DNA of 64,000 bases from a virus (taxonomy: Duplodnaviria > Heunggongvirae > Uroviricota > Caudoviricetes): positions 323,863 through 387,862 of the IMG/VR virus record IMGVR_UViG_3300037484_000445. One strand, written 5' to 3'. The translations under genes were made by a program, and so were the position numbers. Shown here piece by piece: positions 5,306 through 53,348 of the stretch. Under the pieces are notes generated by a model, which was given only the letters and a program-made list of their open reading frames with translations, was not told the DNA's origin and searched no databases. Position 1 is the first letter of the stretch. The number at the start of each line of letters is the position of its first letter.

Positions 5306-5571
5306 CCAATGAAAGGGAGATGATCGCTTCAAAGCACCCTAGTAGCTTGCAGGTGTAACCCCTGCCTACCATCAGGCAAAAGGGAATTCCTGGTCGATTC
5401 GAACGGCCGCGATTGACCTCTGACGGTTGAAGTTCTTACGACAGCACCCTACGAAGGTGTTGAGTTACTAGCGTGCCTTGAGGTGGTCATCACGAAGATA
5501 ATCGCTTCAAAGCACCCAATCGATAGAGGTTCGAGCCCTCCGGGCTTATTCCCAACACGAATTTGAAGGCC

Positions 5572-5607
5572 GTCATCCTATGAACCGAGTCCTTTAGCTC
5601 TTCTCAC
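5572..5607 (+). CRISPR. Solo copy of the IscB array repeat
   Basis: GTCATCCTATGAACCGAGTCCTTTAGCTCTTCTCAC, 34/36 identical to the array consensus (crRNA sense on +). Confidence 0.9.
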
Positions 5608-43219: not shown

Positions 43220-43414
43220 TCATCGCTTCCTGCCCATGAGCCTACTCACCACACCACGGCCGCCAACTGTCGTGTGATTCACCGTGAGATCCCGAGCTAC
43301 GCCTATCTCTGGTGCCCAACGCTCTCCCCCAAAGGTTGGAACCTCCGGATGCCACCCTTCATCAAAGGTGATGGGCGATGACAAAACTACTGCCTCACGC
43401 TTCTCGTCAGCCAT
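43220..43414 (-). CDS. Hypothetical protein
   Basis: 64 aa. Confidence 0.5.
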   Translation of the reverse strand: MADEKREAVVLSSPITFDEGWHPEVPTFGGERWAPEIGVARDLTVNHTTVGGRGVVSRLMGRKR

Positions 43415-43419
43415 GTAAC

Positions 43420-43665
43420 CTACGAACCTTTGATCTCCTCAACGGATACCGGCGAACCCAATAGGGTTTCACCGCCTATCACAAACCGCTTGTCGGCAAA
43501 TAGATTGGACGCCGCCTCGTAGGCTATGTCGTTAACACTCTCGCCCTGGTTGACCTCAACCTCAAGAACGACCTGTGCCTTGCTCCCAACACGCTTACCT
43601 GAAAAGGCTAGGAATATATTGTAGGTGACTCGGTACCTCATAGGCATGTGATTATTCTCGATCAC
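43420..43665 (-). CDS. Hypothetical protein coupled to iscB
   Basis: GTG start overlaps the iscB TGA. Confidence 0.65.
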   Translation of the reverse strand: MIENNHMPMRYRVTYNIFLAFSGKRVGSKAQVVLEVEVNQGESVNDIAYEAASNLFADKRFVIGGETLLGSPVSVEEIKGS

Positions 43666-45089
43666 AAGTGGACTTCGTACCCACTAGTTCGCTCAACCAA
43701 GGTGAGCTTTCGAAACGTAATGTTGCGATCCTTGTCGGACCCAAAAACCCGGACTTGCATAGAACCCGAGGCCCTAGCCCCAACGACCCTAGCTAGAACA
43801 CCATCGGGAAGTCGAACAATGTCTCCCGTAGAGAAACCATGAGGCCGTTTGCCTAGCTCACCCCTCGACTTCTCAAGCTCACCCTTGGGATAGACTATCT
43901 CGGGCTTTCGTTGCCCTAAGCGTCCAGGGTCACGATAAAACATATGGCGTTTTCTCGGATGGCCTGGGCCAAGTTTGGCCTTAGGGAACCCGTAAGCATC
44001 GGTTTTCACCAGCTTGTGACTGCCACGCCCAATGCTCTTGATGAACAAGATCGGAATGTTCCAATACCGAATACGATCAACCTCACCCACGCAAAGGGCA
44101 TCATAGGCATGACCCTTAGGCACTCCTAGTCGCGTTCGATTCCACTTCGTTCTACCTCCGGTGCCTACAGCAACTTCAACTCCAAAGGTCTTCAGGAGAT
44201 CCCTCAAAGCCCAACGAGTCGAGTTCACAGCAGCGGCGTCCTTCAATGGAGCCTTCATCTGTGCCTTAATTCGGGCTAGGACTTTTGGCTTACCCTTGAG
44301 GAACTCCTCCAAAGGTCGATTGCTCTTCCTCAGATTACAGGGCCTGCAGGCTGTACATAAGTTGCTTACACGATCGCTGCCACCGCGGGACCTAGCCTCG
44401 ATGTGATCTAGCTCCAGAGGTACATCCTTGGCTTCACAATAGGCACACTTGTGTCCCCATTTTAGCAAGACATACTCACGCACTTCATAGCCGAACAAAG
44501 TGCCCTGTTGATACTCAACGCCTTGGATTTCAGCGTTCTCCAACTTTTGAAGGTCGAAGCGTACAAGCTCTTGCACTATGCGTGTAACAGGCACCAACTT
44601 ACTGAGACGTCTAACCCACGTCACGACGTTCTCGAGACGATTCCGAATGCTCGGTGCAAGCCAACCTTCTGGTTTGGCCCTGTGCTTGAACCTTCCACCA
44701 GGGCACTTCTCACGCTGCTTTTGATTACTAGATAGGTTCAACGGCGTCTTTCGCCGAAGACCTCCACAACGGTATCTCAAGTTGGCCGAACGGCGACGTC
44801 GGCGACACGCCGAGCGACTTTTCAGGTTGTCCCTTACCCTAGAACCCTTGTGCTCGATTTCAGCCAGGTATACGGGACGATCGTTGGCGACAACAGCCAC
44901 ACCCGTGTACTTCGATCCCGGATCCAATTTCAAGTCAAGCGGCTGCGTATGCTCTGATGTGAGCTTCTTGAGACGTATCGTGAAAGGCATACGCTTGACT
45001 ACTACGGCTTCACCACTCCGTAGAAGCTTGCGTGCCTTCTGGGGCTTGGCCGGCATCAAAGGCCTGCCTTTATAGTCTAAGCAAAACAC
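43662..45089 (-). CDS. iscB: IscB RNA-guided endonuclease (OMEGA family), CRISPR-associated
   Basis: PLMP domain (VFCLDYKGRPLMP), RuvC-I LKLDPGSKYTG, Arg-rich bridge helix RRRRRSANLRYR, GWLAPS, RuvC-II IVQELVRFD, HNH CAYC...LDHIEARSRGG...N...CN, RuvC-III GHAYDA, C-terminal GFSTGDIV. Canonical start would be GTG at 45089; an alternative in-frame ATG lies at 45470. Confidence 0.97.
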   Translation of the reverse strand: MFCLDYKGRPLMPAKPQKARKLLRSGEAVVVKRMPFTIRLKKLTSEHTQPLDLKLDPGSKYTGVAVVANDRPVYLAEIEHKGSRVRDNLKSRSACRRRRRSANLRYRCGGLRRKTPLNLSSNQKQREKCPGGRFKHRAKPEGWLAPSIRNRLENVVTWVRRLSKLVPVTRIVQELVRFDLQKLENAEIQGVEYQQGTLFGYEVREYVLLKWGHKCAYCEAKDVPLELDHIEARSRGGSDRVSNLCTACRPCNLRKSNRPLEEFLKGKPKVLARIKAQMKAPLKDAAAVNSTRWALRDLLKTFGVEVAVGTGGRTKWNRTRLGVPKGHAYDALCVGEVDRIRYWNIPILFIKSIGRGSHKLVKTDAYGFPKAKLGPGHPRKRHMFYRDPGRLGQRKPEIVYPKGELEKSRGELGKRPHGFSTGDIVRLPDGVLARVVGARASGSMQVRVFGSDKDRNITFRKLTLVERTSGYEVHL

Positions 45090-45096
45090 CCGGTGA

Positions 45097-45470
45097 GGGT
45101 GCCGTGGAGTTTCCTCTACGGCACCCTTCGGGTTTCCCCTGAGATTATCAGGGCAGCCTTGCGGCTGTGACGACGTATCAGGTAGCTGCCCAGTTACGTC
45201 ACCTCTAGGAATTGTATCAGAATGACCTTCAGGACTTGCGTCCGTCTGCTCCGCCCCGTTTCGGGATTGTTGTCTGCTGACAGAGCTTCGAGAGCCCGGA
45301 ACTGAGGAAGCATTCCGGGGTCTTATTGATATCGTTTCTGAGCACGCTTCACGTGGGGACTTGCTCGTACCACGTGATATCCTTGGACACCCTGTTAACG
45401 GATTTTTAGGTCCGTCTGAACCGAATCCTTTAGCTCTTCTCACCTCTCGCAAAGGCGTGTCCGTCTTCAT
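45097..45470 (-). ncRNA. omegaRNA-like scaffold with 5' anti-repeat (tracr-omega RNA)
   Basis: HEARO/omega-type motif CCCCGGAATGCTTCCTCAGTTCCGGGCTCT (45320-45291), CAATTCCTAGAGG, several hairpins (TCACGTGG/CCACGTGA, CAGCC-GCAA-GGCTG, GGGTGCCGT/ACGGCACCC), directly upstream of iscB. Ends are approximate. Confidence 0.85.
45417..45443 (-). ncRNA. Anti-repeat (tracrRNA-like)
   Basis: GTGAGAAGAGCTAAAGGATTCGGTTCA pairs with 27 nt of the minus-strand repeat (one G:U against the consensus). Confidence 0.92.
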
Positions 45471-45482
45471 CTGCAGTCCTTC

Positions 45483-45488
45483 TACACC
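45483..45488 (-). promoter_or_regulatory. Class II motif for the tracr-omega/iscB transcript
   Basis: GGTGTA 12 nt before the in-frame ATG at 45470. Confidence 0.6.
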
Positions 45489-45595
45489 GATCGTGACGTC
45501 ATCCGACAAACTATTTTCAGGTTCGAGAGTTTTATCGAGACCCCCTCGCAAACCTGATTGAATACCGTTGGAATCATTGGGGTCCTGAAGGGAGG

Positions 45596-46271
45596 GTGAG
45601 AAGAGCTAAAGGACTCGGTTCATAAGGTGACGCCGTCCTAATCGAGTTACTCACCAGGGACAAGGCGTGAGAAGAGCTAAAGGACTCGGTTCATAAGGTG
45701 ACACTCGTCCTCGTCGAGACCCCAGTCCTCCTCCTCGTTGTGAGAAGAGCTAAAGGACTCGGTTCATAAGGTGACTGGCCGTTCCGTTGTGATAGATCCA
45801 TTGGTAGATAGGTGAGAAGAGCTAAAGGACTCGGTTCATAAGGTGACTACTCAGTCTCAGTCTGACCCTTGAGGATGGCAGTAGGTGAGGAGAGCTAAAG
45901 GATTCGGTTCATAAGGTGACGGGGCACGACCTATAGCGTGTACTGGTAGGGGTGTGAGGGGAGCTAAAGGACTCGGTTCATAAGGTGACTCGTGCTTCGT
46001 GATCTCCCCGATTGGCGAAGAAGGGTGAGAAGAGCTAAAGGATTCGGTTCATAGGATGACGACCAACCAACGCTGTCATGGCTATCGTGTTGGCAGTGAG
46101 AAGAGCTAAAGGGTCCGGTTCATAAGATGACTGCTCAGTGTCACCACTGTTCTGGCAAGTTTGAGGTGAGAAAAGCTAAAGGATTCGGTTCATAAGGTGA
46201 CGAGTCTCCGACCACTGCGGTTCCAGCTCTTGTAGGTGAGAAGAGCTAAAGGACTCGATTCGTAAGGTGAC
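45596..46271 (-). CRISPR. CRISPR array, 10 repeats / 9 spacers
   Basis: 36-nt repeats start at 45596, 45667, 45740, 45812, 45885, 45954, 46025, 46096, 46166 and 46236; minus-strand consensus GTCACCTTATGAACCGAGTCCTTTAGCTCTTCTCAC; unique spacers of 33-37 nt. Strand inferred from the anti-repeat and promoter. Confidence 0.98.
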
Positions 46272-46300
46272 TGGGTACTGCAACATCTGATGGACTCGAC

Positions 46301-46789
46301 TCATAGGGTGGCCGGGCGAGAGAGCTCAGCCAACTTCCTATACACCGAGAGGTCACCGAAATACCTCGGAGGATACCCGCCCTCCAAAGTACTCCCCACC
46401 AAACCCCGCTCAATCAACCGCCTAAGCGCTTCCTTTACCTCGGCTTCCCGTTGCCCCCTCTCCAGGTCCTCGGCCGCGAATTGGGCCTCTATGGCCTCGC
46501 AATAGCCCTTGTCCTCGTAGTTGTCGTTAGGCGGTTGAATCCGCTCCAAGTACACCCGGTTCGTCCCGTACCAGTCCTCAGCCAAACCCTCCTCCCCCAC
46601 AGGACTCACCAGAACCTGGCCCAATACCCACCGGTCTACCTCGTCAGCAAGTATCCCACGGTCCTTCACCTCTGCCGCCATCACTTCGCCCAACACCCTG
46701 CGGACGTAGCCGATCTCTACGTCCGGACACATCGAATGAGGATTCTCAACCTTGCTCCAAATCAGCTTCAAAATGTCAGGTACTTGCAT
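46301..46789 (-). CDS. Hypothetical protein, possible C-terminal winged helix
   Basis: 162 aa; EVKEALRRLIERGLV. Confidence 0.7.
   Translation of the reverse strand: MQVPDILKLIWSKVENPHSMCPDVEIGYVRRVLGEVMAAEVKDRGILADEVDRWVLGQVLVSPVGEEGLAEDWYGTNRVYLERIQPPNDNYEDKGYCEAIEAQFAAEDLERGQREAEVKEALRRLIERGLVGSTLEGGYPPRYFGDLSVYRKLAELSRPATL
46341..46346 (-). promoter_or_regulatory. Class II motif upstream of the array
   Basis: TCGGTGTATA about 70 nt before the first minus-strand repeat, inside the upstream ORF's 3' end. Confidence 0.55.
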
Positions 46790-47713: not shown

Positions 47714-48811
47714 TTACTTGTAGTGGACCATAATATCTGGGGAGCACTTGATTTGGTGACTTTGGGCGATGGTCTTACCTTCAAGGTGGAGTCTGAGGGC
47801 TGTCAGGACTCGGAACACGATTCTGTGTTTGGCTGAGGAGGATGGCTCCTCGTTGCGTTCTTTGCGTACCTTGTCTTCTTTGGCCTTACTCTCTAGCTCT
47901 CGCTTGATTACGGCGGATTTACCACCATTTCGATTCAGGTAGTCGAATAGCCGCTTCAGGGGGTCATTCAACTCTTCAGAGACGTTGGGGATAGTAATAC
48001 TGTAGAACGGGTCATACACTCGCTCTGAGTACTTTTTGTACGCGATCAACATGGCTGCCAGGACGCTAGATTCATGAATGATCTGTTTATTTGAGGCTGT
48101 TTTGCTCTTGTACAACCGAGCTAGAAACTCAAGAGCATCCTTGAATTCGTTGAATATGTCTGCGGTGTCTTGATCGGTGTTGGGTTGGTGTTTGTGTTTC
48201 AGCTCAAAGATCAGGCTTAGCGCTGGCCACAAGATACCTCTAGGTGGTAACTTGTCGTAGTCCACATCGATTTTACCGAGCATGCTAGCGTTATCGTACT
48301 TCTTCCTAGGGGTTTGGCCATCTTGACGAGCTATATCCTCTTCGGTCGCGTCAAGCAGTATATCGAAGATGGCATCGGAACCACAAACCAAGCAGGAGAA
48401 GCAGCGGTGCTGGCCGTTAACCAGTTTACCCTCTCGAAAGGTCACTCGGTCACTGGAGTGTCCCCACTGACCTTCTTTGTGAATTTGGACGAACCTCTTT
48501 ACGTTTGAAGCGGTCAGGGGGCGTTGGTTGGTTGCATTTACCTTCAGAGCTCTGAGTATGTTGAGCCTGGAGAAGGAAACTCTGTCCTTAGAGGTTCTTT
48601 TACCCCCGGTAGTGAAGACCAAGGGATCACAGTACTCAAAGGTGGGATTTTCAACCAACCCATCTTTCAAGAGTTTGTAGAGTGTGCCGGTCAGGCCTGG
48701 AAATATGAGATTCCATTCCGAAGCCCCATCGACTTCCCGATCAAACTTTATGGATGCGCCTCCGGTGCATTCGTCAACGGAGATTATCGTGATGGTCGAA
48801 TTCTTGGACAT
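47714..48811 (-). CDS. ParB/Srx-like domain protein
   Basis: NQRPLTASNVKRF...GQW...LVNGQHR. Confidence 0.7.
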   Translation of the reverse strand: MSKNSTITIISVDECTGGASIKFDREVDGASEWNLIFPGLTGTLYKLLKDGLVENPTFEYCDPLVFTTGGKRTSKDRVSFSRLNILRALKVNATNQRPLTASNVKRFVQIHKEGQWGHSSDRVTFREGKLVNGQHRCFSCLVCGSDAIFDILLDATEEDIARQDGQTPRKKYDNASMLGKIDVDYDKLPPRGILWPALSLIFELKHKHQPNTDQDTADIFNEFKDALEFLARLYKSKTASNKQIIHESSVLAAMLIAYKKYSERVYDPFYSITIPNVSEELNDPLKRLFDYLNRNGGKSAVIKRELESKAKEDKVRKERNEEPSSSAKHRIVFRVLTALRLHLEGKTIAQSHQIKCSPDIMVHYK

Positions 48812-53312: not shown

Positions 53313-53348
53313 GTGAGGAGAGCTAAAGGATTCGATTCATAAAGTGAC
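53313..53348 (-). CRISPR. Solo copy of the IscB array repeat
   Basis: Plus strand GTGAGGAGAGCTAAAGGATTCGATTCATAAAGTGAC, 32/36 identical to consensus, in an intergenic region. Confidence 0.88.

Follow-up and report, generated by a model that had tools for sequence, protein, structure and literature searches.

The locus analysed here lies in a 451,925-bp virus record of IMG/VR, rated 94% complete, of which the window (the whole 64,000-nt stretch of DNA that was analysed) is a part. Along the minus strand, a 10-repeat CRISPR array is followed by a linker, an anti-repeat, an RNA scaffold, and an IscB gene (Table 1), the last being the only IscB gene in the record. Cas1, Cas2, RNase III, and TnpA gave no match in the 451,925-bp record (94% complete), with controls positive for all four. 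Nearly all ORFs between 38000 and 52000 of the window were without a Pfam or PHROG match, and the sole annotated neighbor (47714-48811) matched a PHROG of unknown function.

Judged by its family and structure matches, the protein is a standard IscB. Pfam identified RRXRR (4.7e-62, 209 bits) and HNH (42.7 bits) domains, and the NCBIfam model guided_IscB scored 408.7 bits against a cut-off of 175. Known IscB structures were matched in the PDB at 1e-32 to 4e-41, the nearest solved ones being TbaIscB and OgeuIscB. The catalytic residues D56, E174, H229, H327, and D330 are invariant throughout the clade described below. The Cas9d model scored 29.6 bits, below its cut-off of 375, and the 475-aa core has no Cas9-type REC lobe.

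The four IscB-proximal repeats of the array are identical, and the six distal ones carry two to four transitions. The repeat search in the window returned 10 matches at ≤3 mismatches, compared with none in 100 shuffles. Seven of 10 distinct substitution events in the distal repeats keep the pairing with the anti-repeat, which is not significant. Exactly two further copies of the repeat occur in the phage genome (solo repeats 1 and 2, 40 kb and 7 kb from the array, respectively), and five of their six substitutions retain the pairing.

Several smaller observations concern the same elements. Solo repeat 1 was also present, together with its flanks, in a strain from another sample. The 17-nt direct repeat upstream of it was absent elsewhere in the 452-kb genome, where its 13-nt core was used for the search, and a tRNA scan near solo repeat 1 detected none. 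A repeat-like fragment (46278-46313, minus strand; approximately 24 of 36 matches by eye) lies 6 nt before the first full repeat and overlaps the stop codon of the upstream ORF 46301-46789; from its sequence, it is possibly a decayed terminal repeat.

The spacers gave no significant self-match in their own phage genome and no match among GenBank phages, and exact matches were found neither for spacers 1-3 in IMG/VR nor for spacer 6 in the species genomes. A candidate target of the solo repeat 1 guide (genome positions 43293-43305) was rejected, being a 13-nt seed match at chance level amid overlapping predicted ORFs. A host array sharing the repeat was likewise discarded; the 64 genome and three viral matches were each a single chance match.

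Table 1. Features of the IscB locus and related elements, in window coordinates
Feature	Position	Strand	Description
IscB core	43662..45089	-	475 aa; RRXRR/PLMP, RuvC, HNH; begins with GTG at 45089
Whole tracr/omega-type scaffold	45090..45443	-	354 nt; single copy in the phage genome
GAGG	45202..45205	-	Candidate strand for a pseudoknot with loop CCUC (45307-45304); closely follows the nexus stem
Nexus stem	45382-45380 with 45210-45208	-	3 bp, co-varying
Nexus pseudoknot hairpin	45295..45319	-	CCCGGAA-UGCUUCCUCAG-UUCCGGG; stem co-varies; loop invariant in nine loci
Lower-stem strand CAGGGUGUC	45386..45394	-	Pairs with repeat nt 1 and 3-8
Branch hairpin	45397..45416	-	(G)ACGGA-CCUAAAAA-UCCGU(U); A-rich loop; stem sequence different in every relative
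Anti-repeat	45417..45443	-	Partner of repeat nt 10-36 in the upper duplex of the split guide-adaptor helix
Linker, last repeat to anti-repeat	45444..45595	-	152 nt by coordinates
TTTGCGAG motif 2	45446..45453	-	Abuts the anti-repeat; TGCGAG core invariant
Conserved ATG in AATGAAG	45468..45470	-	IscB frame; 24 nt upstream of the anti-repeat
CGGTGTA box	45483-45489	-	Kept in six of eight aligned linkers, also in L225
TTTGCGAG motif 1	45545..45552	-	~45 nt after the last repeat; TGCGAG core invariant in eight loci
CRISPR array	45596..46271	-	10 repeats of 36 nt, consensus GTCACCTTATGAACCGAGTCCTTTAGCTCTTCTCAC; spacers 33-37 nt, unique
17-nt direct repeat ATCGCTTCAAAGCACCC	5322-5341 and 5500-5519	+	Twice, just upstream of solo repeat 1
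Solo repeat 1	5572..5607	+	Two mismatches, both pairing-compatible; intergenic, oriented as flanking ORFs
Solo repeat 2	53313..53348	-	Four mismatches, three pairing-compatible; intergenic, oriented as flanking ORFs

Pairing scheme of the repeat and scaffold across the clade

The protein search placed the IscB in a small clade at 54-92% identity, and all other matches were at ≤48% over the full length. The same scaffold was found in all nine clade members whose DNA was examined, and the order of array, linker, anti-repeat, scaffold, and IscB was retained in every member with enough upstream DNA, corresponding to eight loci (L010, L011/L012, L013, L015, L016, L017, L018, and L225). Their arrays comprise 3-10 units with intact repeats. 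Three members lie on contigs of 442-452 kb, on which a chaperonin, RtcB, an intein-bearing ribonucleotide reductase, and clamp-loader subunits are encoded nearby, as is typical of very large phages. A clade profile run against species genomes, IMG/VR, and JGI metagenomes returned nothing but ordinary IscBs at ≤52% identity, plus L017 again.

Close relatives differ in their spacers. The IscB of L010 is 92-96% identical to that of the window and its linker is almost identical, with no spacer in common. A strain contig from another sample matches the window up to the exact point where the proximal repeat ends and differs from there on.

Three IMG/VR loci in which an array stands next to IscB were rejected as members of this architecture. 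None of them has an anti-repeat, and the 28-nt repeat of L037 is of a different kind. In L046 (2336-2674) and L054 (2264-2639), arrays of 36-37-nt repeats run straight into the scaffold, and the repeat of L054 forms a hairpin by itself; these two loci show another mode of connection between an array and IscB, distinct from that of the clade.

The 27-nt anti-repeat that the first-pass annotation had proposed as the complement of repeat nt 10-36 was confirmed. It pairs at 28 of 28 positions with the repeat variant at 46024-46051 and at 89-93% with the others, from which it usually differs by a G.U pair. The repeats differ among the loci and the anti-repeat changes along with them; in L011, both have been rearranged by indels. 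The repeat:anti-repeat pairing is almost certainly real. With 10 natural variants, the clade shows covariation strong enough to fix the pairing scheme, and the proposal that the first omega helix is divided between the CRISPR repeat and the scaffold anti-repeat was upheld by pairing that co-varies over eight loci.

The base of this helix was revised. The initial reading paired a GAC following the anti-repeat with the repeat 5' end (GTC), forming a lower stem with a 6-nt bulge, and took the short hairpin beyond it as nexus-like. The hairpin is real (ACGGA/UCCGU, 45415-45398), but it is a branch of the first helix and not the nexus. The A and C of the GAC sit inside its co-varying stem, and the GAC is thus not the partner of the repeat 5' end. 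All eight loci instead pair repeat nt 1 and 3-8 with a 9-mer ending in GUC that stands just after the branch hairpin, with a U.U at repeat nt 2 in every case (8/8, by direct tabulation). Compensatory changes in this lower stem were observed at nt 4 (A-U to U-A in L011), nt 5 (C-G to U-A in L017), and nt 8 (U-A to C-G in L016, L018, and L011).

An equivalent hairpin with another stem sequence was predicted in L010, L015, L016, L017, and L018 and is visible in L013; L011, L014, and L225 have a continuous duplex in its place. A version of the upper duplex extended through mismatches to repeat nt 5-9 was rejected, as it does not hold in L015 and L016 and is incompatible with the co-varying hairpin.

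In the co-folding check suggested with the initial reading, RNAcofold, supplied with 6 nt of spacer plus the repeat and with the 5' part of the scaffold, yielded a three-way junction in all seven loci where extraction worked, consisting of nt 10-36 paired with the anti-repeat, then the branch hairpin, and then repeat nt 3-8 paired with AGGGUG. As modelled, this junction was shown to put the spacer 3' end where the omega guide sits.

The resemblance of the repeat start (GTCA) to IscB scaffolds, noted at first sight, also held, as published omega scaffolds begin with GTCAAC and close with GUUGAC-CAGGG. By this correspondence, the lower stem GUCACC/GGUGUC-CAAGG is homologous to the bottom part of the guide adaptor hairpin, and, on sequence comparison, the split is located in the apical part of that hairpin.

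The consensus fold of the nine scaffolds comprises 93 pairs, 35 of which have compensatory changes. Its parts stand in the OgeuIscB order, namely nexus stem, central stem, nexus pseudoknot hairpin, GAGG, and terminal hairpins. The omega motif recognized in the initial reading (nexus pseudoknot hairpin) is the sole part of the scaffold matched by Rfam HEARO, and its stem co-varies. In the covariance-model check suggested for it, the core was matched at model positions 95-125 (31 nt; E-value of 0.015), at 25.9 bits and below the gathering threshold of 83. The downstream GAGG is where it was claimed to be for a pseudoknot, 2 nt past the 3' strand of the co-varying 3-bp stem, as is the OgeuIscB pseudoknot strand. 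Both the loop CCUC and the GAGG are invariant, and the pairing is a well-placed candidate pseudoknot. A search for RNA runs containing the locus gave none. In a run labelled RNA-Seq, which probably represents DNA, a 150-nt contig covered 45211-45360 only, and it was left out of the evidence.

The scaffold lacks the 5' strand of its first helix; a CRISPR repeat, located at least 150 nt away, provides it. Taken as a whole, the stretch is probably best explained as a gene for the guide-RNA scaffold of a CRISPR-associated IscB carried by a phage.

Linker and reading frame upstream of IscB

The linker is 150-157 nt long in six of the eight loci with upstream DNA and approximately 170-174 nt in L018 and L011. 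It contains two copies of TTTGCGAG, whose invariant cores argue, at the level of sequence, for sequence-specific recognition. RNAalifold paired motif 1 with motif 2 in a G.U-rich, weak helix, in which a flanking position (53/155) showed four pair types. The kept length and motifs suggest that the linker may be more than a spacer between two genes. A role of TTTGCGAG as a phage-wide promoter motif was rejected (three copies in 64 kb against 1.9 expected). The CGGTGTA box may be a promoter or ribosome-loading element, and a near-identical TCACGATCGGCGTA immediately precedes the anti-repeat in the published scaffold of CasIscB-4. A scan for sigma-70 promoters and intrinsic terminators from the array to IscB returned nothing.

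The IscB frame contains no stop over the 354-nt scaffold in any of the nine loci tested, in which the first in-frame stop is met 339-519 nt upstream; over the same 354 nt, 2-11 stops occur in the two remaining frames. For comparison, the median open distance in 183 ordinary IscB loci was 66 nt, and frame 0 was not favored. In the window, the frame is open upstream to 45470 and beyond. All six indels in the scaffold alignment (3, 6, or 30 nt) are multiples of three, while the variable columns are spread over the codon positions without bias (47, 46, and 48). A frame that is kept while its peptide is not fits read-through of a passenger N-terminal tail, and not a folded domain.

The usual first IscB codon is GUU or GUA in six of 10 loci, which therefore have no start codon there; L017 also lacks the PLMP methionine, and in L013, L017, and L225, the nearest in-frame start is 162-306 nt upstream. 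The conserved ATG at 45470 is 381 nt upstream of the usual first codon. An in-frame ATG was found at the equivalent place in seven of 10 loci, always approximately 12 nt after CGGTGTA, and L225 has another in-frame ATG at an equivalent distance. Translation from the conserved ATG meets no stop down to VFVL, and the anti-repeat corresponds to codons 10-18 of the extended frame. Gene callers predicted clade proteins of 574-609 aa.

These features bear on the RNA 5' end, which the first-pass annotation had set at the anti-repeat. This was not confirmed; a conserved in-frame ATG and an invariant motif lie directly upstream. As the IscB frame probably starts upstream of the anti-repeat, transcripts should extend there, and a 5' end at the anti-repeat would need processing. 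A cis guide at 45444-45470, which had been named as a competing possibility, was rejected, as this stretch, with its ATG and TTTGCGAG, is conserved and not variable. Three features of this clade are new and were not described before, namely the frame open through the scaffold, the invariant motifs of the linker, and the solo repeats.

Possible use of the scaffold in cis and in trans

In the model that we favor, minus-strand array transcripts, and probably those of the solo repeats too, would dock on the scaffold. The array-proximal unit could dock in cis across the 150-nt linker, and the other units would have to act in trans. The duplex of approximately 27 bp would be trimmed by RNase III, which would be that of the host because the phage encodes none; whether RNase III takes part in this trimming is, in our estimate, evenly balanced. 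IscB would then cut DNA whose sequence agrees with the final 16-20 nt of the spacer, beside a target-adjacent motif (TAM).

Trans use is favored indirectly, by the 3-10 intact repeats kept in all loci, by the spacers that differ in close strains (L010 and the diverging strain contig), and by the two solo repeats that are still able to pair. Folding of the proximal unit in cis is favored by the two invariant linker motifs, which can pair together. On balance, we consider trans use of the distal or solo repeats somewhat the better supported expectation, and the trans model of the initial reading is a plausible hypothesis. The solo repeats could work only in trans, and the biological setting is a large phage.

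The strongest alternative is that the system acts in cis only, through one long RNA of spacer 1, repeat 1, linker, anti-repeat, and scaffold, which would make it an omega RNA whose apical loop is oversized. The remaining units of the array, like the solo repeats, would then be inert leftovers of duplication or past acquisition. Published CRISPR-associated IscB guides are single RNAs, both as defined and as used, the proximal repeat is separated from the anti-repeat by 150 nt on the same strand, and the linker retains its length and two motifs whose pairing could close the loop; the sigma-70 and intrinsic-terminator scan, moreover, detected neither a promoter nor a terminator between the array and the scaffold. 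However, this reading does not account for the several intact repeats kept in all loci, the array turnover that gives close strains different spacers, or the pairing capacity of the two dispersed solo repeats, and it places the conserved start codon inside the would-be loop. We regard it as possible but rather doubtful.

Under the favored model, in which the scaffold can also be served in trans, the same DNA would be read by ribosomes, and one transcript may act as mRNA or as guide. An extension of this idea is that the IscB 5' coding region is itself the guide scaffold, with translation beginning at the conserved ATG and passing through all 354 nt of structured RNA, and that pairing with a repeat RNA, from the array or a solo repeat, leads RNase III to remove the start codon and thereby releases a trans-acting, tracr-like scaffold. 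This is speculative and we think it unlikely; if true, a single molecule, fed by distributed guides, would couple the synthesis of the nuclease to the loading of its guides. Translation of the scaffold frame, if it occurs, would connect the making of the nuclease with that of its guide RNA in a way that can be tested.

The pairing might instead be mainly regulatory, with repeat transcripts controlling IscB translation or mRNA stability and not guide loading. The frame open through the scaffold in all clade loci, the in-frame ATG upstream of the anti-repeat, and a duplex long enough to block ribosomes or invite RNase III are in keeping with such control. Against it, the geometry copies the omega guide-adaptor helix base for base, including the GUCA..GUC base, the homologous duplex of DelIscB is part of an active guide, and L011 and L014 keep this pairing although they lack the upstream ATG; we consider it very improbable.

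The notion that the stretch is no RNA gene but only an N-terminal coding extension of IscB with incidental complementarity to the repeat, which would suit the absence of in-frame stops in 354 nt, the indels in multiples of three, and the predicted 574-609-aa proteins, is already contradicted by the co-varying repeat and anti-repeat of eight loci and is negligible in view of the 35 compensatory base pairs, the lack of codon-position bias among the variable columns (47, 46, and 48), and the HEARO core match.

Comparison with known systems

CRISPR-associated IscB was reportedly the subject of work by Altae-Tran et al. in Science in 2021 (volume 374, page 57). A summary in PMC11610941 likewise dates its first description to 2021, and the 329-nt ncRNA of KraIscB-1 was characterized as one continuous RNA. 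In the DelIscB RNA, repeat and anti-repeat regions are described that resemble crRNA and tracrRNA (PMC12660989, 2025). The DelIscB/CasIscB-2 guide was used as one cis RNA and cleaves DNA, and the processing of the RNA into two RNAs and its use in trans were left for future study (PMC12660989). The DelIscB locus was not found among viral contigs by repeat or scaffold words.

In the CasIscB table of the Zhang laboratory (PMC13180657 suppl. table 1), the scaffolds are listed as repeat, linker, and anti-repeat, and that of CasIscB-2 (Delaware; TAM NAC) is printed. It consists of a 36-nt repeat, a linker of approximately 70 nt, an anti-repeat, the hairpin GCGGAAAAAAUCCGC, and CAGCUACAAC (PMC13180657). 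Comparison by eye with this printed sequence indicated that CAGCUACAAC pairs with nt 1-8 of the CasIscB-2 repeat (PMC13180657 suppl. table 1). The junction is therefore the same three-way junction as in our clade, with a small A-loop hairpin and the upper duplex before it.

Further likenesses to the CasIscBs are a compact IscB behind a same-strand CRISPR-like array, an omega-type scaffold with an anti-repeat between them, and the lack of adjacent cas1/cas2; CasIscB-1 and CasIscB-2 are likewise from viral metagenomes. The locus very likely belongs to the CRISPR-associated IscB kind, and the layout of an array with an anti-repeat scaffold is known, being that published for CRISPR-associated IscB. 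The differences lie in the IscB clade, outside which nothing above 52% identity was found in genomes, IMG/VR, or JGI; in the linker, which is approximately 150 nt with two invariant TGCGAG motifs here and approximately 70 nt there; and in the start codon, as CasIscB-2 has its own Met start, whereas most clade members lack the usual N-terminal one. The IscB frame that crosses the whole scaffold here is not described for the CasIscBs, and the two solo repeats elsewhere in the genome and the 452-kb phage carrier are further differences. We conclude that, by its sequence features, the locus is a real and well-supported member of this kind with a corrected pairing scheme. On the practical side, it would offer another compact nuclease with a defined guide architecture.

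The scaffold shares with the OgeuIscB omega RNA and HEARO (RF02033; PMC9640706) the nexus stem, the central stem, and the nexus pseudoknot hairpin with its UGCUUC..CAG loop, a strand rich in G that directly follows the nexus stem, the terminal hairpins, and a first helix that opens with GUCA.. directly after the guide. In an ordinary omega RNA, the first hairpin is a compact one of 14 bp, in one RNA with one transposon-derived guide (PMC9640706), whereas the first helix here is approximately 33 bp, branched, and formed by a CRISPR repeat and a distant anti-repeat.

As in type II CRISPR-Cas9, a repeat:anti-repeat duplex long enough for RNase III links the spacer RNA to the scaffold, the guide is 5' of the repeat, and the effector has RuvC and HNH. 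Unlike Cas9, the effector here is an IscB of 475 aa that has a PLMP domain but lacks a REC lobe. An adaptation module is absent, the scaffold measures 354 nt instead of approximately 75 nt, and the whole repeat is paired. The functional RNA splitting of TranC on the way from TnpB to Cas12 (PMC13565253) is similar in that an omega RNA is divided into a repeat-borne guide and a scaffold, but it is part of the TnpB/Cas12 lineage, where the guide occupies the 3' end, and the sequences are unrelated. For the corresponding step from the single guide RNA of a transposon to the crRNA and tracrRNA of Cas9, CRISPR-associated IscB is the nearest living model.
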